From Vermamoeba vermiformis (lineage: Eukaryota): a stretch of DNA of 64,000 nt. Within the stretch, counting starts at the first letter, position 1, and each line of letters opens with the position of its first letter. Under the pieces are notes generated by a model that saw nothing but the letters and a program-made list of their open reading frames with translations, had not been told where the DNA came from and made no database searches. Shown piece by piece: positions 8,833-61,360 of this stretch. A program made the translations under genes and the position numbers. The stretch is from positions 248,001-312,000 of the forward strand of contig JBEWZL010000236.1 in the NCBI GenBank assembly GCA_045837725.1. Reading direction: 5' to 3'.

Positions 8833-10177
8833 TTAATGCTTCTTGTGAGAAGTGCTCATAGTGTGCTTGAACGAGGGCATAGCCTTCTCTTTGAAGGAGT
8901 TAGGGCTGTTCGGGTTAAAGTTGGCGTAGATGCTGTTCAAAATGCTAGCCAAGCGAATACCACCGGCAATCAATTGTTGCTTGATAATAGGGAAGTTCTT
9001 GTTGAAGTAGTTGTCGGCCAAGTAGGGCAAATCTTGATCGGGAGCGTTATCCTCCTACATCCGAATGAAAAATCAGAATCTGGCTTGCAAGGGGGTAGAT
9101 TGATATAAATTTGGAATTTCTCTTATTCAGAAACTCAGTACGATGTGATACTCTCAAAGAATTCAAGTCACAGTTGATCATCTTGTAAGAGGAGCGAAAA
9201 TCAAATCCGCGGGGAGCTGGTGATCCAGCCCAAGGCTCATACGAAGAGACAACTTACCGGTAAGATATTGTAGCATGCAGTTCTGGTGTAGTAGAACGAG
9301 CTGTTAGCCCAACGAACAGGATCCATGGTCTTAGTGTAGTACGGGATCAGATTAGGGTTGTTGTTGATCACGTCAGTCAACTCTTCAGCGAAGGACTCAT
9401 AATCACTGTCTATAATAATAATGTATTAATAATCTGCCACTTAGACGGGCGGTGCACGAAGACTTACTGTGGTGGTAGATGAGGCCAGTATCCCAAACGC
9501 TATGGAGCTCTTCGTGCTCCTTACGATCGTACAATTGTACCTTTCGGTTGTTGCCACCACGATCGGCAGTGTAGCTCACCTAAAGAGAATCATTAATAAA
9601 CAATCGACCGACGAATCTGATTTGAAAAATCTTTGGCACTCCCAATTTAATAATAAATTTGTGATAAAATGAATAAATATGATATAAATTTCTCATTATG
9701 AGCGAAATTATCGTTAGCACTTACGTGGAGGGGCTGATGTACATCTCCAACGAAATGAACCAAAAATGCCAAAGGACTGGGAGTATCCTCGTGCCAATTG
9801 TCATTGGGCACATAGTAAGGAGTGGTGGTTTGCAAAATTTTAGTGTAATTCAGAATGGCACCAACGACACAGAGGTTATTCGAGGGGCATCCAACTGACA
9901 TGGTAAATTCAGTAGCGTCCAAGGGCATGTCGACGAAGTGCAAGGGAGTGGACCAGGCACCGTGAGAGGTCGCGCGGTAGGTGTCGGGTTGAGGAGCGAT
10001 GTCTACGATGGTAGTATCTTGGCCAAGCCAGACACTGCATGCAGATTGCGCGTTGTCGGTCAACAAAGATTGAGCGATAGCTGCAACGACCTTGTGGCCT
10101 TCAACACCCCATGCGACTACGGCAGGGCAAAGAAACACTCCAATGAGTGCAATCACCGCGAGTGTTGTGGTTTTCAT
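8833..10177 (-). CDS. Secreted S1/P1 nuclease
   Basis: Signal peptide then WGVEGH; WSTPLHFVD; FLVHFVGDVHQPLH|VSYTADRGGN; LHSVWDTGLI; QQLIAGGIRLASILN. Confidence 0.95.
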
Positions 10178-10264
10178 ACTGCGGATTTGAAATATTTTGC
10201 ACGAAGGAAAAACAATCAGTTGTTTTGTATTTTTGACCGAGTAAGCACTGCTCCCGACTTGAAA

Positions 10265-12771
10265 ATGGCTGCTCACGAAGAAGTGATCTTACCCTGGTAC
10301 CAAGTCGTCTTGGTTTACCTCAGTTTCGTGTTCATCATTACGTTGGGCTACATCAACGAGTTTTTGAGCAGAGTATTCGCCCCGAAGACTAGACCACCTA
10401 AGGTAAATTAGAAAATGCACGAATAAAGCTATAATACAGCAAGATCATGAAATTTGACGATTAACCGCTTCAGATCGGGTTTGACAATTTGAAAAAATAA
10501 TTATGATCTCGTTTTCCTTTATTAACTTTTTGATAATTTTAGGGCTACTCGCCTTGGTTTAAGGACTACGAGGCGTTTTTCAACCGTCGTATGTACTCGC
10601 GTATTAGCGACTGTTGGAATAGACCGATCGCCAGTGCTCCTGGTCCCAAATTCGACGTAATTCAACGAGAAACTGTTAAACAGCCTCTCTCTTGGATCGT
10701 TGATAACAAAAAGACAGTGTATGTAATTAGATATCGAGCTCTCAAGCGAATTATTAATGTAACGGCTTCTGATCTTTGGATTCACCGGTCTAATTTATTT
10801 TTGCTATAGGCTCTCGGACAAGACAACTACCTGCTTGAACTTGGCTTCATATAATTACTTGGGTTTTGCTGACACTAAGGGCAAACACATCGACGAAGTT
10901 ATTGCCAGCGTTAAGAAGTTTGGTGTTTCAACTTGCAGTCCTTCTTTGGAATTAGGTAATTATTTAATTGTGATAATTATTGGCGAGATATTGAAGCTTT
11001 ACGGGTTGTCACGAGATGTGCCCGATATTTTCAAATTCCGCTTGCATTTTACATACATCGGTTAATTCATCTGATTATTTATTGATGGAGACTAATGATT
11101 ATATCTTACTACGACGGTATATGAATACAATGATTCTGATATAGTACCTGAAGTTTTCCATCAATATTTTCTGATTAACCGCCTAATTAATTATTGCTCA
11201 TTTAACACGGCATGATTAGAGATAAATAATAATATGATCATACACTATAATAGATATTGATTATTTTAATTTTACAAGGTACCACATCTCTTCATGAAGA
11301 GCTCGGTCAATTGATTGCTCGATTTGTTGGCAAAGAAGCTGCTCTTATTTTTGGTCAAGGCTATGCTACTAACTCTACTAACTTGCCGGGTCTTCTTGGC
11401 AAGGTAAGCCAGATTACAATTTTTGATTATAGCGCGACAATGGATCCGTCAGGAATAATTCTCTTTTCGCATTATTTGGATATTTTAATAATTATAATTC
11501 ATAGGGCGATCTTGTTATTAGCGACAGCTTGAACCATGCTTCGTTGGTCGTTGGCTGCAGAAGCAGTGGATGCAAAACTAAAGTCTTCAAGCATAATGGT
11601 ACTAATAATAATTATTTCTTCATTCACACAGTAGGACCATAATTAATATCAAATTATAGATATGGAGGATCTTGAAAGAGTTATTCGCGAGTCTATTGTC
11701 GAGGGCCAGCCCCGCACTCACCGTCCTTGGAGAAAAATTATGATTTTGGTCGAAGGCATTTACTCTATGGAGGGCGAGATCTGCAAATTACCCGAGATTG
11801 TCAAGTTAAAGAAGAAGTACAAGGTACATTTATATTTCATTATAGCGAGATTATGTCGCGACAAATCATTGTCAGAGGCTATCTTCGTGCAATTGACTCG
11901 TCGTTCAATATATTCGAATACTAATGACGATTATAGTGCTATTTGTACGTTGACGAGGCTCACTCAATTGGTGCTTTGGGCAAGTCAGGCCGTGGTGTCT
12001 GCGAGTACTGGGGCGTTGATTTTGCCGATGTTGACGTGTTGATGGGAACTTTCACCAAGTCTTTTGCTTCGGTCGGTGGTTACATTGCTAGCTCTAAGGT
12101 ACGTCATATTACATAATACTAACACATAGATCATTGTATGAGTGAACGATATGCTGATCTCTTGTGCTGTTTTTAGGACGTTATCGATCACTTGCGTGAG
12201 AGCTCTGTCGGTGGTCTGTACGAGACTTCTATGCCTCCTGGCAACGTGCAAGAGGCCATCTCGTGCTTGAAGATTATTATGGGCGAGGACGGCACTGACC
12301 TCGGTCGCAAGAAGGTCCAACAATTGCACGACAACAGCAACTACTTCCGTCAAAAACTCATTGATATGGGCTTCCAAGTAAGTCACACGCACTAGTCCTA
12401 GGTAAACATGATAATAATAACGGCGTTATTTTTTGCAGGTCTTTGGTGAGAAAGACAGTCCTGTTATTCCTATGATGTTGTATTACCCTGCCAAGATCAG
12501 CGCCTTCTCTCGCGAATGTTTCCGCAAGAATGTAAGTACACTAATACTACGGCTATTTAAAGCAAATGCGAATAGTTTGCTAATAATTATTTATTCTTTT
12601 TAGTTGGCTGTGGTCGTCGTAGGTTTCCCAGCTGTACCTTTATTGTCAAGTCGTGTGCGTTTCTGTATCTCCGCTGCGCATACTCGAGAAGATTTGGACA
12701 ACGCTCTTAAGGAAATTGATCATATTGGTGATCGCTTGATGTTGAAGTACGGATCGAGTCGACAGCACTAA
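10265..12771 (+). CDS. SPTLC2: Serine palmitoyltransferase subunit 2 (LCB2/SPTLC2)
   Basis: [67 protein letters not shown] (PLP lysine); [11 protein letters not shown]. Confidence 0.96.
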
Positions 12772-16184: not shown

Positions 16185-18339
16185 ATGTCGTTTGGTTTTA
16201 ATTTTTTTCACCGGTCCAGATCTTTTGCAATTATTTAGAACGAGCACTAAATCCTATTGTTTGCAACAGGTCGCCATATTCTCATCGCTTTATTCATCAC
16301 CTTGGCCCTATTCATCTCATCGGGCACCTCCGACCTCGTCGTATATGCGCCGTCGGATCTTGCAGGCCAGTATACTGCCTACCCCATAATCTACCGGAAC
16401 AACTTCCGAAACGAGACAATCGACGGACAAATCGTACTGCCCAATGCCACAGATGTGACGGATAAGATAGTCTTAATGGTCTATTATCGGGCTACCTATT
16501 TAACACAGATCCGCGCACAACAGAATCGAGGTGCACGTGCCGTGATTATTAGCGCTCAACCTGGAGGTAATATATCAATATTATATATGTCACATAATTA
16601 TAGTTTTTTGAATGTAATGACGACCAATTCCAATTAAGTTTTCATGAAATCATTAATTTATTTCTTGCATTTACTATGGAATACTTTATTACGAATCAAT
16701 CGCAAGTAGAAATCTTGATAATATTAATTCAGCAAAGTTTATCGTTTCGGTCAATCGTTGTGGGATCGGGCGTTTTCTCTAACCAGTATTTTCTTGTAGT
16801 TACTCCAGGCCAAGCGAATTACGTTCTCGATGGCTCCAACGAAGACGACGTAATTTTGAGCGCATGGCACATCACTTACGCGGATTACGGCAAGCTGACT
16901 AACGTTCTGGCAAAACAACCGGATGTCGTTGTCAACGCTACTTTGAGTCCCGCAGGTAAACTTCAATTGATTCAGTTTTGCATTTACTCTTCAATTCTGC
17001 AATCTGCCTCACAGGCGCAGGCGGAAGCCTTAAATTGTATAACTTCAATTTTGCCATTTATGGATCTGCTGCGGTTGAGATGTTTCTCGGCACAATCTCG
17101 CGATTTATTCGTATCTTCATCCTGACCGAATTTGAATTTGAGCAGGAACTAACCCATGGAAGTACTGGAACGACTCCTTTATGGTCTTCGTGCAAGTCTT
17201 ATTGACTGCATTCTCGGCAGCGAATTTGGGTCTTGCTATTTATAGACTCGTTTGTCACATCCGCGCCGATGGCTGCCGCAAGCGATTGCCTCAAGCGTGC
17301 TTAGAACTGATTATAGTCGGCAATATATGTAAGTCCAATGCAATTACGACGAGAAAAATTTGTTCATAATCAAAAATGCTAATTTCTAATGTAGTCCGAT
17401 TGCTCTACGTTGCCGTGGATCCGATCTGGTCACGTGGAGTCTATCCATTGCCATTACAACACGTCTTATGGACATTCTCGCACCCTTTCAGCTTATCAGT
17501 CACGATTTTGATTACGTTCTATTGGTAAGATCTATTTTTCTGAAATGCAATCTAATTGAAAGGGCCAGTTCCGGCCTATCGGTTACGCTAAGTAATTTAT
17601 AATTGAGAGTCGCTCAATATGTTATAGCTAGTAACCGAGACCTATAATAACATTCTTACACCGATATTGTATTATAGGCACGACGTTATGCACGGCATGT
17701 CACTGAACATCAATCAAATGCTCGGTCGATTCAAGATCCCGTTCATCATTGTTATCGTCATTCTCTTCGGTATTGAGATTGGATTTGGCATTACTAGAGC
17801 TCTGATTACTGTCACTGGTGTATTAGTTACGACAATGATCACCGCCAACAGCTCGATCTACGGCGGAGTTTGCTTTGCTTTTGCGGTCTTTTTCTTCGTG
17901 ACTGCCGGAAAATTGATGCATGTGCTTAATAACAAGCAAGAAAAATCGAGGCGAGGCAAGACTCTCGCAAGAGTAAGTCAGATCTGTGGAAATTTTTGAC
18001 ATTTCCAAAATTAGAAATTTCAAATCTACGGTATATTTAATCGATTATTATCCATAGATGACGACTAGAATTATCGTTATTGGTGCGTGCTTAGTCTCCC
18101 ACGTGGTTATATTCATTCTCATCGCAAACACATCATTTTCGGTGAACCCGATCCCGTTCGGCACGATCTGGTTCTTCTCCTATTTGGTACTATGCGTTCA
18201 AGACCTATTCCAAATTCTTGCCTTAGTCCCCAAGCCCAACAAAAACTCATCGACGAACAAATCGTCTAACAAGGAGGCATTGAATACGACCCACAGCGGT
18301 ACCACACAAACAATAACGGATGCGACTACTGCCGTTTAA
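16185..18339 (+). CDS. PA-domain + 7-transmembrane receptor-like protein, paralog A
   Basis: Signal peptide; PA motif KIVL...QIRAQQNRGARAVII; seven hydrophobic segments including LITFYW; Ser/Thr-rich tail. Start inferred from a short first exon ATGTCGTTTG. Confidence 0.75.
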
Positions 18340-19068
18340 ACTGAATATGAACACGTATGCTTATATTGTAAAATAGTAAACTCATTTATAAGATTATAGA
18401 TCCGCCCGACTCAATTTGTACTGGGTTCAATTCAAGATCGGGGCACAAATAAGGATAATATAAATTGGAATCACAACGCTAGCCAATACAAATAGCGTCC
18501 TAAACAATAGTCAATGATTGTTTATTACTGTTTGCGCCCTCAATGTTCCGCTCAACGATGTTGTCTCTATTCTTTGTCGGAGCAGACTCCGATCCCTGGG
18601 ATCCCGAAAAGACGTGTGGACTGTACTCGATAGTTTTTATTGCGTTACTTAAGTCAAACAAGGAATATTTTTCGGGTAATATCAAAGTTAGCTGAAATCT
18701 GCTCTCATTTTGTTTGTTTGGTGCACAATGACAGGACCCAAAATCTTCAATCATTTCTGCCCCAGTTTTTTAGTATGTCCCATTGTATAAAGAAGAGCAA
18801 CACAGCAAGTGATATACTTTTTGTATTAAGCTGTTAAGACGGGTGTTAATAAGTGCTCATTTGGTGTGTTCGTGGATCTCAAAATAATTCAACAAACGAC
18901 GATGCGTAAGTAGTAACTCTTGTTTTTAGAATAACCTATGTACCATATAATAATGTTCATGCGTACCTTTTCGAATGCGCGCAATAGGAACATATTTTCA
19001 TGAAAGATTTATGGCCGCCAGCGGATCGTTGTGCCGCCAGGCATTCAAATCGATTACTTTATAATGAT

Positions 19069-21135
19069 ATGTGCTTGCGTATGAGTTCAATCCAATATTT
19101 CATTTTCGTTTTTGTATTGTCAAGAAACGCTATTCGTTTCGGATTTGTTGCAACTTTTATACAGAGATTGACACCGTTTTTTCAGAACTAGGTTCAAAGA
19201 AAAGCATTCTATTCTTCGTAATAGCGCTCGCTGTACACACGACGATAGCAGAGCTTATCATAAACAGCCCTGCATCCATTGAAGGCTCGTACATTGCTTA
19301 CCCCATTATTTATCGTTTCAACTTCCGCAACGAAACTATTGATGGAGAAATAGTGCTTGCAAATTCATCGGATGTTACCGATAAGATTGCCCTCGTTGAA
19401 TACTACAGGGCTGAATATCTTTCGCAGATCCGCACCCAGCAAAATCGAGGTGCTCGAGCGGTAATAATTAGCGCTCCGCCATTATGTAAGTCTAAATATA
19501 TATTTACTCTTTATTATAGTTTGAAATTAAGATTGCTGACACAGAAACTAAATAGATTCGAGATCTCGACTTTACTAATTAATCTTGTCTCACAGTTATA
19601 CCCGGCCAGGCCAATTATATCTTAGATGGATCGTCAGAGGAGGGCGTAACATTAAGCGCGTGGCATATATCATATGTAGACTATACTAAGATTGCCGAAG
19701 CCCTCACAACGTTACCCAACGAAACAGTTAGTGCGACGTTAAATCCGAGTGGTAAGATTTAAAGTTGAATTAATTAGGCACCATACTATGACCAATACCT
19801 ACGCGCCATTAATTAACGCTGTAAATCCCGCTGCTTTGAATAATTGATTGAAAATAATGACACTTTGACGACTTTCCTAATTTAGTACCTAATGAGTTTA
19901 CTTGTTCCCAAATCCTAATTAACCGAATGAATTTCTTCAGGAGAGAACCCGTGGAAGCATACTAGCGAGACATGGATGATATTTTTTCAAATCTCGTTGA
20001 CCCTCTTCACTTTGGCCAATCTTTCGCTCGCTATTTGGCGCATCGTTGAACACGTGAAAGCTGACGGCTGTCACACCAGATTGCCTCAGGCGTGCTTGGG
20101 ATTGATTATAGCCGGCAACGTCGGTAAGCTACCATATAACCAAATAGTAATTACGGGTACTAACTCGTGTTAAAAGTTCGTTTGATCTACGTTGCGGTGG
20201 ATCCGCTGTGGTCCCGAGCGATCTATCCGTTGCCATTAGAACACTTATTGTGGACTCTATCACATCCATTCAGCTTGGCAGTAACGATTTTAATCACTTT
20301 TTATTGGTACGTTCAGATGACACGTGTCAACAAGTCAAAGTGTCAAAGTATACAAAAATATCGACACGTTATTATCAGTTAATATTTTTGTAAATACTGC
20401 GGTAGCGAACTTATTCGATTATTTTAGGCACGACGTTATGCACGGCATGTCACTGAACATCAATCAAATGCTCGGTCGATTCAAGATCCCATTCATCATT
20501 GTTATCGTCATTCTCTTTGGCATTGAGATTGGATTTGGCATTACTCGTGCGTTAATTTCAGTGACTGGAGTGCCTGTAGCCATCATGATCGTCGTCAATA
20601 GCATCATCTACTCGATTGTTTGTTTGGGCTTTGCGATCTTTTTCTTCGTAACCGCTGGCAAGTTGATGAAAGTCTTGAACAAAAAGAGCCGCGGAGAAAA
20701 GAGCAGACGCGCTAAAACCCTTCGTAGAGTACGTACATCCATATAGATATTTCCTTATTTAGAATTTGATTTGTCTGAGTTGCTCGCCGAAATTTTGCGC
20801 GATGTTTTATTACTTCCTAAAAAGGAAATTATTTCTAATACCGATCTTTGCAGATGACGGTGCGAGTGGTAGTGATTGGCGCATGCCTCTTGTCCCACGT
20901 GATCATCTTCATCTTGCTATCCAACACGTCCCTGGCAGTCGTGCCAAGCTCCTCAGCTGTCATTTGGTTCTTCTCGTTTTTGATCTTGTGCGTGCAAGAT
21001 TTGTTCCAAATTCTCGCTTTGGTGCCTAAGCCGACTAAGACTTCATCCATGCGCAATACTTCGAACAGATCTACTTCGCAGAACAACGAGCACTTGAACA
21101 CTGCTACGCCAACAACGTCTACTAATGAAGTTTAA
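19069..21135 (+). CDS. PA-domain + 7-transmembrane receptor-like protein, paralog B
   Basis: Same exon layout and motifs as paralog A (AYPIIYR.NFRNETIDG, QQNRGARAVII, LPQACL.LII.GN, VQDLFQILAL). Confidence 0.75.
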
Positions 21136-26189: not shown

Positions 26190-27285
26190 ATGACAACGGT
26201 CAATACGCAAGATAAAACGCAGCGTAAGGAGGCTTTAAACCATAATAATAAACGAAATTAGAAATAATTTTTCGTGTTACTAAATTCACGCAAAATTCAA
26301 TTTATGGCTCGATCAAATAGAAACACTGACAAAATTTATTTCTAGGCTGGCTTAATCTGTTGCTTGATTTTTTTGAAGCAGCCATTCACCAAATTTTGTA
26401 TTGTCGCGAAGTGTATCCGAAGCATTGAGTAGGCCTCCGAGCCCAAGGGGTCGTGTTTTCCTCAAAAGCGAAAATCAAGCGAGGTTCCGTAGCTCAGCGG
26501 CAGAGCGGATGACTGCAGATCATCAGGTCACCGGTTCAAATCCGGTCGGAACCTTTTCTTTTTACTTTTTTGTTGTTACCATCCTTGACCCAAACAGCTA
26601 TCCCAAGCAGCTTTTTACTCGAGCTCAACTTTTTGGTGTACCTATTCAACGATCCCACGCAGAGGAGCTCAGCAACTACATCCGCAACGTGGTTTCAGAT
26701 CTCAACCCGTTCTTGGCGAAGGTATTTTTGGCTGCATTACGCCTTTTACGCTCTAAGTTCTTACGTTATGCCCTAGGGCGTCATTGAAAGTGTTATGGTT
26801 GATATCATCGATGACAAAGAGAAGACAGTATCGGGTGCGTATTAAGACATGCACGGGTCTGCGACGGAATAACACATATCGACTTACCAGCCATTGCTAA
26901 CTCGTGTTCAGAACGCTTTGTATTTGAGACTCCAGTATTGTCGCCGACCGAAGCCAAGACTGATAACGAGGACTTATCGTCTTTAGTGGAAGCGTTGAAA
27001 TCAGTTCTACTGCGGATTTCGGCAGTAAATTCGCACATGGCTGCTCCCAAACGAGGTAAAATTTCATAAACTGGTGTGTTTCGCACTTACTGATCGAGAT
27101 ACCTGTTACGACGGTTAGATCTTCAATTTGCAATTAGGGTGAACACCAAAGACGAATCTATGCTCAAAAGTCTTACGTGGATTGAGTCTGAAAAAGAAAA
27201 CAAGCAGAAAACGTTTGGATCGCTTCTACCCTTGCGATCTGTCAACGAATCCGGCTTAAAAATGCAGCTTTTCGTAAACTATTGA
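26190..27285 (+). CDS. REV7: HORMA-domain protein REV7/MAD2L2
   Basis: DFFEAAIHQILYCREVYPKQLFTRAQLFGVPIQRSHAEELSNYI; ERFVFE; C-terminal LPLRSVNESGLKMQLFVNY*. Confidence 0.88.
26413..26597 (+). other. Putative U12-type (minor) GT-AG intron of REV7
   Basis: Donor GTATCCGA; branch-like TCCTTGAC at 26582-26589, close to the CAG acceptor. This splicing restores CREV-YPKQLF in frame. Confidence 0.6.
26483..26554 (+). tRNA. tRNA-Cys (GCA), intronless, inside REV7 intron 2
   Basis: Acceptor stem GGTTCCG/CGGAACC; D-arm GCTC..GAGC; anticodon arm GATGA-CTGCAGA-TCATC; T-arm ACCGG-TTCAAAT-CCGGT; discriminator T, followed by a T-run Pol III terminator. Confidence 0.96.
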
Positions 27286-27483
27286 ATCAAGTGGGAAGAA
27301 CACCAAGATTCGCGATCAAACGCGAAATCATGATTTTACTATGATGGGTGGAATATATTTAGATTGGCGGTCAAATGCCGCTCGTTGCAATTATTCTAAA
27401 GTGGTGTTGATTCACTTTAATTACGTTGTGCTCGCGCAAGCACCAATCCTGCCTTAGCGCGCATTGTATCAACAATACATTAA

Positions 27484-30400
27484 TTAAATCGGTCCGATTT
27501 TATTTAATACACGAAGATTGAATGCGACATTAATTTCAATAAATAGCGGATACGGGATTTGCTTGAAGAATGGCTTTTTAACGACTTCCTCGTAGTTACT
27601 TACGATGTAGTTCAATATTTTGTCTTTAATCTTCTCTTCTCCTAACTCCGTAGCCATATCTAACAGCTCCAAACAGTTTTCAGTTGTCAATGAATTTCGC
27701 ACTGCGTATCCACAATGAATTACGAGCGGTAAGTGCTCCGTTGCGAGACCGAAATAAGCTGCAAAATAGCAACATACGTCAGTGTCAAGTTTAATTACGC
27801 TTCGGCGAACAAATTTAGCACACCCGGCCCGAAAAAAATTTGCACGCGTTTTTCAGATACTGCGCAATCGGAATAAATATTTCCGGCTTTAGACCGTATA
27901 AAACAAAACTGTACATTACCTGAGTTGACCAATATATACATGCAGTCGTAAGGATTCTTTAAGTGGCTTTGTTTGCCGGAGTAGAAATAACGGATCAAGC
28001 CTTTTGCTGCCTCGTAAGTTATGCCTTGTTTCTTATTAGGCCCTGGTATCTTAAGTACACCTAACATACGTATCAACATTAGTACCAGCGGGATATTATT
28101 ATCGTGGACGGAGTTCACAATGCAAAAGCTTTTTATCAGATCACAAAGTTTTAGTTACCCGAAGAGGCCTCCGCCATTCCAGACCTGAATAAAGCTGCAA
28201 AGAAGGCGCAACGCGTTGATAAAATTAATTTGTGACACCATATAAATCGATCTTCGACCTCGAGCTTGAAATCGCATTCCTAATTAGCTTACCGTTAATT
28301 TTGACATTTTAAATATAGTCCATATGTTGCAACAACATATTATTCATCGTAATTGCTACGTACCACTTGTTTAGTAAACAAACTATCCATATCTTTTGAC
28401 AGGGAAATGTTCGTCGTTACACCGAGCTCCCAAATCTGGTTTAGAGTCATCTCTTCACCGCTAATCTCCACCGATTCCTTAACGATGCTAGCAAATTGTT
28501 TATAGCCCAAGATGCGCGACTCAACTTGGTCAATTATCGCCCCATTCGATCCCGTCGTGTGTAAGTGTAACAAAACTCCACGGATCTGTCCCAAATATGA
28601 CTCATTAGCTACGCCTTATCGGAAAAATAGCAAGAAGAATCATATTAAAGCGACTAATGGCCGATAGTAACGCATATAATGTAACTGGATTTCAGATCCA
28701 AATTTAGATCCGTTGCCAATCAATCGGCCGATGTTTGATTGCTTACCACCGCTTCGAGTTCAAACTTTAAAGCTTCTTCTACGATAGTCACAGCGTCTCT
28801 AAGCCTGCAACGGAGAATTAAATTGGTATCGTGGCATCCAATCATCTAGGATTTAAATTGTTGTACGTACTGAAATACCAAAGCTAGGCGTCGAAAGCAA
28901 TGTTGTTTTAATAGGTCCAAGTTGAATAAGGTCGCCAACGCCAACAATCCGATCAGATCTTTGACACCGTCCACCGAATGTTCCGGCAACACTTCTCCAT
29001 AAATATAATTAATCAGGGCGTTAATGCTCTTGTCGCTAACAGGCAAGTCGTTGAATATATTATTAGCGTTCTTTCGTTCGAGCATTTTGGGGCATCTGGC
29101 CAGTAAGATCGGCGAGTGTAAAAACAACGTCTTCTTGTTGATAACTATTTGGACATTGGAGCTTTCTTTGCTTGCCAACAGTTTTAAAAAGTCTTTTCGT
29201 AGTAAAGCAGCTGTTGCTTGCCCGGGTGTGCCTAGAATGCGAATTTTCCAAATAAGGTAATTTGAATTTAAAACTCAAATCCGTACCACTCAACGCTGCG
29301 CAATGAGAAGAGACCGAGCTGATATGCGAGAATAGTACGTGCTCGTAACCTAAGATAGGTTTCGGTACTAAAGAGCTCTTCTCTGCTCCATGTCCAAGTT
29401 TGCCGTAGGCGCCGGATCCCCAAGTGTAGATTATACCTTCCTCTATAGATGCGGTTAGTATCAATTTCGATTAGATTATACATTAGTACTACGCACCTGT
29501 CAAAGCAAGGCTATGATATTTGGCAGCTACGATGCAGATAAAGGTCACGCTAGTTTTGATTTTTGTAGGTCTCAAGCATAAATTATAATTGCCGTGCCCT
29601 AATTGGCCGTAACTATTCTTGCCCCAGGTATATATCTCGCCCTCCTCTGCAGATACAAATCTTAAATTGTGGGAACGGACAGATCCAGAAATAGATCCAG
29701 CGGAAATATAGTGCGCGGAGGATTGAATGAAAAATATCTGCAATCTCGCTACTTACCAGACAATGCCATACTATGCGAATGACCAGCAGAGACTGCAGCG
29801 AAAGGCACGTAATTGAACCCTTCTATTTTAACCGGTGTAGCGACATTGGATGTGTTGTTATGGCCTAACCGACCATAAGCGCCGTACCCCCAGCTGTATA
29901 TCCGTCCATCCTCTATATTAAAATCAGATAAGTATCCATCAGGATCATTAGAATTAATCCGCTACAAATTGTTTATCAAAAGATTTTCAGAACGTAAACA
30001 AAATCAAATCAAAATTAAGGCAAGTAATTTACTGTAATATTATAGTTTACCCGTTAGCGCTAGAGAATGATAACTGCCGCAAGATACTTGAGTTATTTTG
30101 ACGTTGGATGGGAAGTTGAGTAGTCTCGGTTTGTAACAATCGTCCGTTCTACCAGTGCCTAATGCGTACCTCGCACCACAGCCCCACGCGTAGACTTGGC
30201 CTTTGTCTATTTTGAAAGAAATCTATTTTTAGTAACTTGTAGAAAGCAGTTCCATCTCGGACGGATGGATCTTGCAGATTGGACTCGAAGAAAGCATACC
30301 TGTAACAGCCATAGTATGCGATTTGCCCGATGATACAGAAACGATCCGCGTATGTTGGAGATCTAAGTCGAGATCTTTAGTTGGTTGAATTTTCCTTATT

Positions 30401-31563: not shown

Positions 31564-33887
31564 ATGGAGCACCGTAGAATATTAGCCTATGGTCTCTTGT
31601 TACTCGCTTGGTACGTTAATTAGCATTATTGGATAGTTTTGGCTCGCATTAACTCGTCTGCTTAGCGTGCTAATTTGTAGAGGTGAATCTGAGCCAAGCA
31701 CGCAAGAAATCGAGAAAAAAATATTCACAACGAATGATTTATTAGAAGAAAAACAGCTAGAAGTTTTAGAATGGGAGGACGGGCCCGGATTTATTGATAA
31801 GGTAAATTTGTTTATCTTCCCTCAAAGTAAAACACGTCAAAAATATGGAAATATTTATTATTAATAATTATCGATATTTTTACTGGGATTTTTGACTGAG
31901 TATTTATTTTCTGAAATCGAATTTCGTTAATGAAAATATTCGGATCCCATTTTCTGACGTGGTCATCACAGTTACTCGCGAAAAGAGTGCCCGTAATATT
32001 AAAAAATTCACCTGCAACACAATGGGCGGCTGTAAAGACATGGAACCCGAAGCACATGGCCGAAAAAGCTGCGGTACGTCGAACACATCTGATCTACCTT
32101 CGTACACCATGACTAAGTGTCGTTATATGAAAATAGAAAGCTACAGGAGTTAAAATATACAATAAGCGAAAATTTCCAGTCGGCTGTTGCGAATTAAATC
32201 CAATGTCGCAAAAAGACTTTTGGGATCGAGTGGAAATGAGTCAGGAAGCAGGTACGTCATAGTTAATACGAACTAATATATCTAATATAATATTATGCGG
32301 TATTTGATAATATTAATGATATTGAAGCATATTCAAGAGTAAAATATTTTTCGGATCCAATGCACTTTTTGACATTGCCTTTATCTTTATAGGCGAGTAT
32401 ATGTACTTCAATGGCCAGGCACATATACTAGGCCCCGCTCTCGAAAAGGAAATAGGACCAAAATTTTTTATGGAGCGCGAGGGACGAATGACCAATGTGT
32501 GGATGGGCAACAAAGGCGCGACTGCACCATTGCATCACGATCCGTTTGAGAACTTTTTCGTGCAAGTCTACGGAACGTAAGTCATAGTATATAGTATACT
32601 AGTGATATACTCAACGGGACTTGCCTTTTTAGGAAAAAGTTCTACTTGTTTCCGCCATCAGAGCATCGCAATCTCTACGTACATCCCAAGACTCACGCGA
32701 TGCACAGACACGCACAAGTGGACATTGACGCGCCTGATCTTGAAAAATATCCCAAGTTAGAACACGCGAGGGGATTTACATTGTTGGTAGAGCCAGGCAC
32801 CGTGTTCTATTTACCACCGTTTTGGTTCCATCAAGTCGAGTCGTTGACTGACACGATTTCGATCAACACGTGGTACCCGTCGACTGTTGTGGTAAGCATT
32901 GTTATTGACAAGGCCTCTGTACAGTTTAACAAAGTCGCGTGTCACTCCAAGGCAACACCTATCACTCCAACACTTATGTTTGACACGTGTCATTTGTCGC
33001 TCAACGGCAAAACAGAAATTATTGACTGATGTGCGACAGTATAGGCCTCCTTATGCCCGTTCTATAGTACCAACTTTCTGAGAATTTTTGCTTTACAGGA
33101 ACAAATGGGCGAGGCTTGGGACGAAAACATGCCGTTCAATCCTGAATGGAGCGACGTCAATTTTGTCACGGCTGTCAAATACGTCATCAGCAAGATGATC
33201 GAAACAGTCTACCCTGGCGAGAATTCAGTGAAAGAGTTCATCGGCGAACTCGTTAGAACTCGATTCGTGCCACTGTACAAGAACTCTTCGGCCGTAGATT
33301 TATTGACTGGTACGTCCCATACCACATTTGACACCTGTCACACCTATAACTCGACCGTCCATTCGCATCAAAATCAGTTGATGCTAAAAATAGCTCACCC
33401 GGGTCAGCCTTTCGATGACACGTGTCAAATTAATGTTGCCTTCACTGTCCGAATTATGACCTTAATTTCATTGTAGGAGTGAATACCGTGAAAGATCCGC
33501 ATCTCCAAGTACATTTGCACGAACAACAAGAGCTCGATGCGAGTATTTTTGCACCGGCATTGAGGGACGAAGAATTCTGTGGCGGACCTCCTGACTTTAT
33601 TGAAGGCGAGAAGTCAGTGTTGAAAGAGTTCAAACGCGCTATTAAACGGTTGTCGGCTAAATTTAGCAACGCGCCAAAAGGTAACAAAGAAGAAAGTTTA
33701 TTTTTAATGTTTTTTAACGATTTTTTTTTGGTCAGATCTGCGAGACGTGCAAATGGAAGATTATATTGAAGATATGATAGGACAGGTACGATATCGATTT
33801 AACGTCCATATTAATATTTATTAACGAATCATTTATCAGACTGTCGGCGACCGAAAAGTGTTCAAGTTCCTGCAAGACTGTTTCTAG
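31564..33887 (+). CDS. JmjC/cupin-8 2OG-Fe(II) hydroxylase (FIH/JMJD5-like) with an N-terminal hydrophobic leader
   Basis: PVILKN..ATQWAAVKTW; NVWMGNKGATAPLHHDPFENFFVQVYG; FYLFPP; EPGTVFYLPPFWFHQVES..SINTW. Confidence 0.88.
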
Positions 33888-34053
33888 GACCGTAATTGAA
33901 CCTGTACGAGCATTTGTTGTGTAAATAATAAATTTGGGCTGAATTCTCGCCGAGATGGGACCTCATGTGAATCCACGGTCCAAATCCTCCACATTTTTGT
34001 TTGGATGTAACCAAAATTCGGTTACAATTTTTTTGAATCTTCAAGAATAAACC

Positions 34054-35701
34054 ATGGAGCAGTTGTTAGCTGAAGCTAAAGATGCTGGATTTCTAGAAGC
34101 CCTCGAAGAGCTGTTCAAGGACGGCGTTCTAAGCTTTGAAGAGTATCGACACAGAAAAGAGGCCCGGATGTCGAAGGTAAAAATTATCTGATGGTTCTAA
34201 TAAATAGTTTAATAATATCTAAATTGCAATTACGAATTTTCTACCTTAATATTCGATAGTAATGAAATAAATAATATTTTTTCCAGTAAATAGAATCTAA
34301 TTTTCTAACTTACGCTTGTACATTAGAAAAAACCAGATACTACAACTTTCAATACATTTGGAGGCAGTGCTAGTACCGTGGCGTTTGATGCTTCAAAATC
34401 AACAACGACGGATTTGGCAGCTTTTGATCTGCGCGCAGGTTCAACTCAAAGCACAACGGCTTCATTCGATGTCATTGCTAATTTTGATAAATTAACTATT
34501 GGAGGATCATCGACATTTCAACTCGGTACAAGTGCAACGACCCCCTGTGAGTCCAAAAAAAAAAAAGGATCGGATCCGATCTGACCCGCATTTTTTGCTA
34601 AGTGCCAAGTACTACATCCACATCTGGTTCGGAGACAGATGTTAATACGGCCATTCCAATGCCACTGCCAAGCAAACAAGCTGCTACCCAAGAGTACAAA
34701 ATTTGTTTGCTGGGTGACGCTGCAGTCGGCAAAACAACTTTCTTGCAAAGATTTCGCAGCGGAATATTTGGCGATGCTTATCAACGTATGCTATATATAC
34801 GAAAAATCAATGAATCTACTCACACGTCTCTTAGCTACGATAGGTTGTGAAGTACATCCGGTGACTTTTAACACGAATCAAGGACCAATCACAGTTCGAG
34901 TGTGGGACGTCGCTGGAGAAGAGAAATTTAGAGAATTACGCCAGGGATATTAGTAAGTCGCAGTGAGCCCCAATAGTATTATAATAATAGTATCAACGCA
35001 ACTGTGAAAAATATTGAGTGACACGTGTCATTTTTTTTTTCACGTGGCATTTGTCCCTGTTGAGTTATCTTGTAAAATTTGATATCAAATAGTGAATTAA
35101 TAAGATGTTTGTAGTATAAAAGCCGACGCGTTTATCATCATGTTCGATTTGACCAACAGATCGTCGTACAAAAATGTTCCGACTTGGTACAACGAGGCAG
35201 TTCGAGCAAGTAGTACTACTGCACCAATGGTCCTCGTGGGAAACAAATGTGATTGTAAAGACAGAAGGATTAAGCCGAAAATGATTATGTTTCATAGAAG
35301 AAAGGTACCTCGTTCATGGGATCTAGATCCGTCGTAAATTTTCATATTATTACATTATATTATATTATTTCTATATTAACCTTAGTCTTCATTTTCACAG
35401 AATATTCAGTACTATGAGCTGTCGGCCAGAGCTAACTACAACATCGAAAAACCGTTCTTGTATTTATTCAGAAAATTAAGAAAGTAAGTGTCATTCTTTT
35501 GAAAATGAATTATAGTTATTTAAATAGGCCTATTAATTATTAACTAAAAGTGCTAGTGACGTCAATTTGAGTTTTGTTGAGTCACCAGTGCTGCAACCGC
35601 CTTCTGTGCCGAACTCCATGCAAATGATGCAACAATACGAACACGAATTACTAACGAGCGTGACAGTTCCTCTGGAGGAGGATGATGACGATGAATTTTA
35701 A
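34054..35701 (+). CDS. Divergent Ran-like GTPase with N-terminal extension
   Basis: [85 protein letters not shown]; acidic C-terminus EEDDDDEF*. These are Ran-specific signatures. Confidence 0.9.
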
Positions 35702-58986: not shown

Positions 58987-61360
58987 ATGGTAAATATGCG
59001 ATCGTTGGTACTCTTCAGCTGTATTTTCTTGCTGTTTTCAGCGGATGTCTTAGCTGCTGTCAAACCGCAAACCCCCATCCAAAACGTTGTCGTGCTTATG
59101 CTTGAAAATAGAAGCTTTGATCACTACGTTGGATACTTAAAACAGACTCTCAATCCTGATATCGATGGCCTCACTGGAAACGAATATAATTTATACAATC
59201 CGCAAGATCCCAACTCCAAGAAGGTCTATGTGAACAACAAATCGTCCTTAGTTACACCTAACCCTGGTCATCAAATTCCGGGTAAGTAGAAATTTATAGA
59301 CGATGATGAGACCAAGTGTCAAGTCACGCGATCAAAGCCCGACTTTTTCTTAGGCATTCAAATTAATGTCTCTACTTATACTCAATATTATACTCATATT
59401 TAATTCAATTGAATAATTCACTTTTAAACCAGAATTAAATTCTAACAATCGAAAATTCAGATGCCACATTACAAATCTTTGGCAAGCAATATCCTGGCTC
59501 TAACGATGCTCCCAATATGTCCGGCTTCGTTGCTAGCGCTGAAGGAATGCAGAAGGTTAGATTCAAGCGAAAATAAGACTACTTGACTCTTCATGAAATT
59601 ACTTTTTCGGACTTGTAGACTTAGAGTTTCAGATCTGCAGTTTTGTTGCAGTCATTTTATTATATGCGTATCATACTTATAATATTAACCATTATTAGGG
59701 ATGGGGACCTAACGTTATGCAAGCATTCGCCAACACGAGTGTTTCAGTTACTGCTACCTTAGCCAAGGAGTTTGCTTTATTTGATCGCTGGTTCAGTTCA
59801 GTACCTGGTACGTATCAATTAATAATACGCACTCATATACGACATATGAAGTTCGCGTGCACCGGATTCTCATCCGCTCGAATAGTTGTTCGAAAAGTAA
59901 AATCAACACAAAACAAATTATTATTACGATCTTTATGATATTTGAGCACCATTAGTGCATTAGGTGCTAAATTGCACGATAACTTTGATAAACTAAAAAA
60001 AGAAACTGGATGGCACGGGACGGGACGACAGCTAACTTATTGACATTTTTGTAGGCCCCACTGAAGTCAACAGATTGTACTTATTATCTGGTACTTCTCA
60101 TGGCTTGGGCTACAATGACCCTATCAAACTTGGAGAGGGCATGCCTCAACGCACGTACTTTGACGAGTTCCAAGATCAGGGTCTTTCGTGGAAGATCTAC
60201 TTCGATCAAATCCCCACTGCCATGTACGTAATTATTCGTAAATTAATATGGATATTAATGGTGTAGTATAGGTTCTTGAAAAACCTTCGTTCTGTGAATT
60301 ACATCGAACACAACTTCAAAATTTTAGCGCAGTTTGAGCACGACGCTGCTAACGGCAAGTTGCCTCATTTCTCGTTCATTGAGCCTCAATACTTCTCTGT
60401 ACCTTTATTCCCTGCCAATGATCAACATCCTTCGCACGACGTCTCACACGGTAAGCGGATTTGTATTTGTACTGGATGCGATCTCGAAGTGGTTGACTCA
60501 TTTTTGGATTTTATAGGCGAGAATTTAATTAAGAGAATTTATACTGCCTTGAGAAACTCGCCTCAATGGAATTCAACTCTTTTCATCGTCACCTTTGACG
60601 AGCACGGTGGATTCTATGACCACGTTCCTCCTCCAATGAACGTTCCTAGCCCTGATGGTATTAACACTAACGACCCTGTATACTTTGGCTTCGACAGATT
60701 GGGCATTCGTATTCCTACGTTGATGGTTTCTCCTTGGATCAACAAGGTAATTCGATCTGATCCAATTTGAGCTGAACCATAGCTCTGAATCCTACCGCTA
60801 TCAATTTATTACTGAAAAGAGCGTATATTAATAACATTTCCTTGAAAAACAGGGCACTCTCATTCACGAACCTGAATCTGGTTACTTCGATCACACATCC
60901 ATCTACGCCACCGTTCGTAAGATGTTCAACTTGCCTAATTACTTGACTCAACGGTAGGTATATGCGATTAAACGAAATGAGTACTAATTAAACCAATTTT
61001 CAGCGATAAGTATGCCGCTACATTCGAGCAGATTCTTCTTCAACGCAAGACTCCTCGTACCGACTGTCCAGTTGACTTGCCTAGCCCTAAGAACGTTAAG
61101 ACATTAGAGGTAATATACGATCCTATTTTTAATTTGTGGATTGCTTTGCGCCGAAGTGCGGATCTAATTAGAAATTACAGATGATCGCTATGGAGCATTC
61201 GCAAGATTTGAACGACTTACAAAAGGGATTTACCGACTTAGCAGCAAGCTTGAACGGTCTCCCTGGCACTCCTGAGCATATTAAAACCGAGCATGACGGA
61301 GCCAAGTTTGTTAAGAAGCAGATGGACTTGCTCTTTGGTCGTCATGGTGTCAAACTTTAA
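58987..61360 (+). CDS. Non-specific phospholipase C (phosphoesterase family)
   Basis: IQNVVVLMLENRSFDH; LAKEFALFDRWFSSVPGPT..NR; ANDQHPSHD; TFDEHGGFYDHVPPP; RLGIRIPTLMVSPWI; FDHTSI. Confidence 0.95.

Follow-up and report, generated by a model that had tools for sequence, protein, structure and literature searches.

Within a 64,000-nucleotide stretch of the Vermamoeba vermiformis genome (contig JBEWZL010000236.1, positions 248,001 to 312,000 of the forward strand; hereafter the window, with positions counted from its first letter), we found an intact plus-strand gene at 34054-35701 that encodes a divergent relative of Ran. By every sequence criterion except three residues the protein is a Ran family member: Glu204 stands where canonical Rans have the catalytic glutamine (26 of 26), and Ala154 and Ala155 replace the P-loop glycines Gly19 (26 of 26) and Gly20 (25 of 26). 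About 143 residues precede its G domain, in agreement with the roughly 140 extra residues of a preliminary description drawn from the letters alone, and this arm seems to place the gene in a small, undescribed family of arm-bearing Ran paralogues. The first 41 residues of the arm are predicted to homodimerise. Our favoured reading, to which we give a probability of about 0.45, is that the product would be a mostly GTP-like, dimeric Ran.

Ran identity and gene structure

One account describes Ran as mostly single-copy in eukaryotes, with few duplications, and as among the most conserved eukaryotic proteins (PMC6177115). When the exons were compared with solved structures, exon 5 matched Ran at E = 3.4e-17 (the best non-Ran match being Rab-3 at E = 8.5e-9), exon 4 matched Ran residues 42-79 at E = 1.1e-11 (Rab6, E = 1.6e-4), and exon 7 retrieved Ran/Gsp1 only (28 of 28 sequences at E ≤ 1, best 1.3e-5). 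With Ran as the best match of all three exons, the initial proposal is supported: the gene encodes a paralogue of Ran in which P-loop and switch II are remodelled and an arm is added at the N-terminus. Pfam placed exons 3-6 in the Ras family (best on exon 5, E = 2e-13) and matched no family on exon 2 or exon 7.

From the exon alignments, the residue number in the window protein minus 135 gives the Ran residue, by which Thr177 corresponds to T42 and Glu204 to Q69; Ala154 and Ala155 were equated with G19 and G20 by gapless extrapolation through the alignment of the relatives described below. The P-loop GDAAVGKT (residues 152-159), switch II (residues 200-213) and the codon GAA at 34918 (residue 204) are all present as first described, and NKCD occupies residues 258-261. 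The protein terminates in EEDDDDEF and has no C-terminal prenylation box. None of the nucleotide and magnesium ligand positions (P-loop Lys/Thr, Thr42, Asp65/Gly68 and NKxD) is among the 42 conserved columns that have changed, and because all of these canonical positions are kept we infer that binding of guanine nucleotide and Mg by the G domain has been preserved.

The gene model was built by joining open frames at GT..AG borders, which gave seven exons, six introns of 49-162 nt and a coding sequence of 1062 nt for 353 amino acids, free of stops across all seven exons, from the ATG at 34054 to the stop codon at 35699-35701 (Table 1). An in-frame alternative acceptor for exon 7 at 35551 was rejected in favour of 35557, because exon 7 then has the length found in Ran and in the relatives. 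Splicing was followed in Logan contigs of a related organism, about 95% identical to the exons, from the sequencing run that we call X1; five runs contain shares of 0.05-0.12 of the sequence, and X1 is the one compared. Its spliced contigs skip exactly the predicted introns at 34546>34603, 34785>34835, 34952>35120 and 35304>35401. At the third of these joints five intervening letters stand in for 35115-35119, and the fourth is tabulated as 35302>35399, its cut being movable by +2. Exons 2 and 3, and exons 3-4-5-6, are joined in a processed molecule of the X1 organism. We guess that X1 is a run of the RNA kind; a processed DNA copy is an alternative source of its spliced contigs.

The upstream gene ends with its own stop at 33886, followed by AATAAA, and leaves an intergenic gap of about 170 bases. 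A short frame at 33955-34050 (Met and 30 codons) stops 3 bases before the ATG at 34054, and would be an upstream open reading frame only if transcription begins before 33955. A tblastn search of the window with the model found no second Ran-like locus in these 64 kb, all other matches having E ≥ 3.6.

The arm-bearing family and its N-terminal motif

Three types of relative have the architecture of the window protein, namely an N-terminal motif, a variable, low-charge, Phe-rich Ser/Thr linker and a Ran-like domain. They are environmental proteins from JGI/IMG, annotated only as 'GTP-binding nuclear protein Ran', and are represented here by P0079 (302 amino acids), P0171 (376) and P0176 (406); the three types may be paralogues of one environmental genome, possibly linked. 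The spliced model aligned with P0079 over model residues 12-337, arm included, at about 40% identity over the whole length. When the arm alone (residues 1-140) was used as query against 278 proteins, five were found at E < 1e-3 in three clusters: P0176 (2.4e-11), P0171 (1.1e-10) and, at 2e-5 to 4.5e-4, the trio P0156, P0079 and P0155, members of a single 90% cluster. Full-length frames of the relatives lie on contigs barely longer than the frame itself (for example, 302 amino acids on 917 nt), and exon-sized fragments of them lie on contigs of 7-523 kb and end where window exons 3, 4 and 5 end. Because the fragments end at these borders and the full frames fill short contigs, we infer that introns occupy the same places in the relatives' genes and that a single mRNA carries both arm and G domain. 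Exon fragments of all three types are recorded, as P0151-P0160 and P0280-P0283, on contigs whose lengths coincide (7347, 273751 and 522845 nt), hence the suggestion of a single source genome.

Phylogeny, one of the checks proposed in the preliminary description, groups the window protein with its arm-bearing relatives. In a maximum-likelihood tree of the G domain (225 columns), the four arm proteins share one branch, supported at 97/88 by ultrafast bootstrap and the SH-like approximate likelihood-ratio test (UFBoot/SH-aLRT) and present in 98% of 200 bootstrap trees, with the window protein sister to the other three and three other long-branch rows outside. Long-branch attraction is a caveat for this branch; the shared arm is independent evidence. 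Columns filled in fewer than 30% of rows, the arm among them, had been dropped before the tree was built. The four proteins also share derived residues (NKVD to NKC[DE], Ala86 to Phe, and Phe157 to Ile or Val), and canonical His30 is replaced in all of them, by Leu in the three relatives and by Phe in the window protein. Two further long-branch Ran-like proteins, P0011 (270 amino acids, with a hydrophobic N-terminus and DVAGQ) and P0035 (280 amino acids), lack the arm motif and are extended differently at the N- or C-terminus.

An exhaustive search with exon 5 gave 2163 proteins at E ≤ 0.001, and among the 150 matches listed the highest identity was 62% and no close orthologue stood as a representative. 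Word-indexed protein searches with exons 3 and 5 found nothing at E ≤ 0.001, and scans of metagenome contigs with P0079 and with the family alignment gave 48 and 597 pattern matches, of which none was confirmed. A full-text literature search, with subscription journals and supplements outside its reach, found no description of an arm-bearing Ran, and a literature search for SHOCT with a GTPase in eukaryotes found nothing on Ran by title or abstract.

The N-terminal motif comprises about 35 residues in two helices, with the pattern G-[FY]-x-x-A-L-x-x-L-x-x-D-G-[VI]-L-S-x-E-E-[FY]-x-x-R. Thirteen of its residues are invariant in six sequences, one from the window and five from relatives: M1, A8, G12, A16, L17, L20, D23, G24, L26, S27, E29, E30 and R34. 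The SHOCT family of Pfam (PF09851), whose name refers to a C-terminal position, matched exon 1 with E = 0.0028 and 17.8 bits, and it matched the same N-terminal place in P0079 (18.1 bits, E = 0.0022), P0171 (16.6 bits, E = 0.0067) and P0176 (13.7 bits, E = 0.054). In the arm proteins, then, the position is N-terminal. No SHOCT match was found in P0011, the extended Ran without the motif. Comparison of exon 1 with PDB returned only designed ankyrin-repeat proteins, each stretch being insignificant, and we set these matches aside as a generic helix-turn-helix likeness and not homology. The ESM Atlas held no usable match for exon 1.

Two copies of the 41-residue exon 1 peptide were co-folded and scored 0.62, against 0.01 for the best of three controls. 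The mark used for a dimer is reached by 21 of 30 solved same-chain pairs and 0 of 23 single chains from microbes, and by 17 of 29 and 0 of 30 from eukaryotes, where only 1 of 7 without an older solved relative reaches it. Three runs agreed in at least 96% of contacts, with a predicted local distance difference test score (pLDDT) of at least 87 for the partner, and the family alignment was not an input. The predicted interface is symmetric and comprises residues 4-6, 8-17, 19-20, 25-26, 30, 34 and 38, which include 8 of the 13 invariant residues (A8, G12, A16, L17, L20, L26, E30 and R34). A8, G12, A16 and L20 form a ladder with a spacing of four, as a tight helix-helix contact would need. The motif is thus predicted to homodimerise, and what had been described as a possibly oligomeric protein gains a modelled dimer, at the level of the peptide.

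Between this motif and the G domain, the disordered, Ser/Thr/Gly-rich linker of the window protein contains one FG (residues 52-53) and seven Phe within residues 49-105, at spacings of 3, 9, 13, 14, 6 and 11. FD occurs four times against 0.47 expected, a count reached in 0 of 5000 shuffles. FG is enriched in the linkers of P0171 (5 against 0.98 expected, P = 0.0014) and P0176 (3 against 0.64, P = 0.018) and occurs once in P0079; over the four linkers there are 10 FG against 2.2 expected from shuffles, and 0 of 5000 reach 10. These FG and FD tests were chosen post hoc, after the data had been seen. The motif [AS]-F-D-[LI]-R-A is common to the window protein (AAFDLRA), P0171 and P0176. For exon 2 the ESM Atlas gave bacterial hypothetical proteins, at best 0.87, and no lead.

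Switch changes and their possible consequences

In columns at least 90% conserved among 26 canonical Rans, the window protein keeps the consensus in 86 of 128, compared with 103 of 126 for P0171, 88 of 126 for P0176 and 87 of 128 for P0079. At positions where all three arm relatives are canonical, the changes of the window protein are clustered in the P-loop (G19A, next to a G20A that is common to P0176), in switch I (E34I, E36G, K37D, K38A and V45C) and in switch II (T66V, Q69E, G74E and D77Q). Comparison with X1 orders some of these changes. Through the P-loop and into the start of switch I (34684-34785), an X1 contig matches the window letter for letter, and no difference is listed at codon 201 (T66V). 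At 34918, X1 reads C, which makes codon 204 CAA (Gln) where the window has GAA (Glu), and codon 217 encodes Lys in the window but the canonical Gln in X1. The listing covers differences more than about 31 bases from the ends of contig pieces, and residues 205-214 lie outside the comparison. By this comparison, the changes in the P-loop, in switch I and at T66V are older than the split between the window and X1, and Gln to Glu is later and specific to the window's species, because X1 and the three distant relatives keep Gln. Gln to Glu, which the preliminary description put first among the features of the paralogue, does not define it, as X1 reads Gln there and the distant relatives keep DTAGQ.

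These comparisons suggest the following two-step course for a mostly GTP-like, dimeric Ran. The first step in the window lineage, common to the sister species X1, would comprise Gly19/Gly20 to Ala together with T66V and four changes in switch I; the second would be Q69E in the window's species only. The likeliest effect would be weaker hydrolysis under stimulation by RanGAP and altered affinities for partners, with the rebuilt switches altering how the protein is handled by RanGAP, RCC1 and receptors. The N-terminal motif would pair two chains into a dimer whose Ran domains sit on flexible tethers, and such a bivalent, mostly GTP-like Ran might hold or titrate karyopherin-type partners instead of cycling quickly. 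The apparent order, P-loop first and Gln to Glu later, fits a lineage in which GAP-driven hydrolysis had become dispensable and a benign Gln-to-Glu swap equally.

Several points weigh against this reading. On the side of the arm, the dimer comes from a model score for a 41-residue peptide, the eukaryotic passes of its mark may reflect memory, and the counts are small. All SHOCT matches lie under Pfam's gathering threshold of 27 bits, so that of the proposed SHOCT-like motif a real resemblance at residues 12-35 stands, below the cut-off. The single FG of the window linker is not above chance (0.48 expected, P = 0.40); the likeness to nucleoporin repeats that had been seen in this linker finds its counterpart in the FG-enriched linkers of the relatives, but not in the window linker itself. 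The joint between exons 1 and 2 was not directly seen, and X1 has no depth over exon 1. The X1 contig of exon 2 opens with 5 unplaced letters and starts 2 bases ahead of the exon; an exon 1 end in ...AG would fit this, which proves nothing. Of the linkage of exons 1-3 presumed at the outset, the joint between exons 2 and 3 is seen in X1 and arm and G domain share one frame in the three relatives, but the joint between exons 1 and 2 is unseen. The raw RNA runs X6, X7 and X8 gave 3, 0 and 3 reads, all partial and confined to 35004-35035 in intron 4, a count that is not an expression test.

On the side of the G domain, the GAA codon might reflect a single-base assembly error at 34918. Other small-GTPase families naturally have residues other than Gly at the Gly19 and Gly20 positions, and to our knowledge Glu is the mildest replacement at the position of the catalytic Gln. 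The laboratory mutants of Ran, G19V and Q69L, are changed at the same two positions, Gly19 and Gln69, but the window residues are Ala and Glu and not Val and Leu. By analogy with Ras, where one report gives raised intrinsic GTPase activity for Q61E (PMC2987813), Glu204 may keep or even raise intrinsic hydrolysis. The description of the protein as hydrolysis-impaired is weakened by this; because Ras Q61E shows raised activity, the proposal now leans more on Gly19/Gly20 to Ala, from which impairment can be conjectured.

The same Ras finding favours the strongest alternative, that the protein is a normally cycling GTPase that tolerates the Ala-Ala P-loop and uses Glu204 for its catalytic base, leaving a dimerising arm as the sole novelty. 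This is possible, and we regard it as a serious though not a probable explanation. The sister species X1 combines Gln with the same P-loop, P0176 has one Gly-to-Ala change with an intact DTAGQ, which suggests that a P-loop change alone is compatible with a working member, and all nucleotide and Mg ligand positions are conserved. Set against it, Ran G19V is described as a dominant mutant locked in the GTP-bound state (PMC2132962); all 26 canonical Rans and all three arm relatives have the catalytic Gln; and the many changes in both switches suggest an altered handling by regulators.

A second alternative, which we think unlikely, is a selfish, conflict-driven duplicate of the Ran pathway under recurrent positive selection, as proposed for copies in Drosophila. 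The terminal branch of the window protein is long (2.12 against a median of 0.18), and the changes concentrate in the partner-binding switches. Selection was gauged from the coding differences with X1, 9 synonymous and 10 non-synonymous over 501 comparable positions. The G domain has a pN/pS of 0.51, high for a Ran, and the arm one of 0.21 (both from small numbers), but the overall dN/dS, a second of the checks first proposed, is about 0.33 and denotes net purifying selection, which is loose for a Ran. The family is old, having diverged to about 40% identity. A retrocopy of the Drosophila type was ruled out by the introns, which number six and of which three or more occupy positions common to the exon fragments of distant relatives.

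That the gene is a duplicate decaying into a pseudogene, under relaxed constraint and with a GTPase switch that no longer has a specific function, is very unlikely in our estimate. It would suit the window protein's being the fastest-evolving arm protein at canonically conserved columns, of which it keeps 86 of 128 where P0171 keeps 103 of 126, and the loss of the catalytic Gln in the window's species only. However, the 353-codon frame is intact over seven exons with canonical splice sites, spliced transcript-like contigs exist in the close relative X1, and dN/dS is about 0.33 overall and 0.21 in the arm. The coding pieces of X1 contain a single indel, a 3-base deletion at 35690, whereas its 3' untranslated region (UTR) has more.

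Least credible of all is a wrong gene model in which translation starts at Met131 and yields a normal-sized Ran of about 223 residues, exons 1-2 being 5' UTR or part of another transcript: Met131 does lie 13 residues ahead of the first G-domain strand, near the canonical Ran start, and the unseen exon 1-2 joint would allow it, but 130 in-frame codons without a stop precede Met131, three relatives with arm and G domain in a single frame have N-termini homologous to the arm, the pN/pS of the arm is 0.21, and the upstream gene has its own stop and AATAAA.

Surroundings, significance and comparison with known Ran systems

Table 1. Exons and sequence features of the arm-bearing Ran paralogue (window positions).
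Feature	Position	Strand	Residues	Content
Exon 1	34054..34176	+	1-41	N-terminal helix motif, residues 12-35 (34087-34158); SHOCT-like, predicted homodimer interface
Exon 2	34327..34546	+	42-115	Ser/Thr-rich low-charge linker; one FG, four FD including AAFDLRA
Exon 3	34603..34785	+	115-176	End of linker; P-loop GDAAVGKT (34713-34736); start of switch I
Exon 4	34835..34952	+	176-215	Switch I Thr (34837-34839, Ran T42); switch II (34906-34947)
Glu codon in exon 4	34918-34920	+	204	GAA at the Ran Q69 position
Exon 5	35115..35304	+	215-278	G-domain core; NKCD (35242-35253); basic patch HRRK (35293-35304)
Exon 6	35401..35483	+	279-306	SAR motif (35422-35430; SAK in canonical Ran)
Exon 7	35557..35701	+	306-353 and stop	Ran-specific C-terminal extension; acidic tail EEDDDDEF (35675-35698)

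The palindromic 10-mer GACACGTGTC, which has a CACGTG core, occurs in the window at 20319, 32982, 33417, 35020 and 53214, five times against 0.02 expected, and 0 of 100 shuffles reach five. It is a motif and not a repeat element, because the flanks of the copies differ. Intron 4 of the Ran-like gene contains one copy and the adjacent upstream gene two; the copy at 35020 falls in 35004-35035, the sole stretch partly matched by RNA reads of X6 and X8.

About 5 kb upstream of the Ran paralogue, on the minus strand at about 27480-29470, lies a gene in which an RCC1 repeat (E = 6e-10) is accompanied by a BTB domain (E = 4e-6); by its domains it is of the RCC1-like/BTB type, which does not show it to be a Ran exchange factor. 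The plus-strand genes at 16251-17999 and 19068-20746 have near-identical peptides, with a long hydrophobic stretch and an N-terminal region recurring in both, and look like a recent tandem duplication. The sole Rfam match in the window is a tRNA-Cys (GCA) at 26482-26555 (+). Other neighbours include exons of an S1/P1 nuclease at 9647-10288 (-; E = 4e-28), exons of a phosphoesterase family protein at 60267-60770 (+; E = 3e-36) and leucine-rich repeat (LRR) proteins. By the usual distribution of their families, the nuclease and the phosphoesterase, together with the short introns, suggest a eukaryote other than an animal.

What appears new is the conserved architecture of the arm. If our reading is true, a conserved self-pairing arm and a Phe-rich tether on Ran paralogues would be a new architecture for the Ran switch. 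The family also offers a natural series, from an intact site (P0079 and P0171) through one P-loop change (P0176) and two with Gln kept (X1) to two with Gln to Glu (window), which lets one ask which functions of Ran need GTP hydrolysis and which need only a GTP-like shape. A bolder extension, which we consider doubtful, is that arm-bearing Rans form a second Ran system of distinct structure, each a dimer, in which the FG/FD linker would engage transport receptors bound by the protein's own GTP-form G domain, uniting Ran and an FG nucleoporin in one chain; the window lineage would then be resistant to RanGAP and supply a permanent RanGTP signal, independent of hydrolysis, at the pore or the spindle.

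The window protein shares with canonical Ran/Gsp1 the motifs G1, G2 (Thr42), G3 (DxxG) and G4 (NKxD), HRRK, the acidic-tailed C-terminal extension and the lack of a lipid-modification box. It differs in having the extra N-terminal residues and in the alteration of 42 of 128 conserved columns, which include, besides Gly19/Gly20 to Ala and Gln69 to Glu, Gly74 to Glu, Asp77 to Gln, four switch I changes and SAK to SAR, and its terminal branch is about 12 times the median. Among the arm-bearing proteins, it stands apart from P0079, P0171 and P0176, which retain DTAGQ and a GDGG or GDGA P-loop; an acidic tail is present in the window protein and P0079 but not in P0171 or P0176. The Ran-like gene of Drosophila is reportedly an intronless retrocopy, a divergent extra copy of Ran where Ran is otherwise single. 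The window gene resembles it in being a divergent extra Ran copy, and differs in having six introns and an arm domain common to distant relatives.

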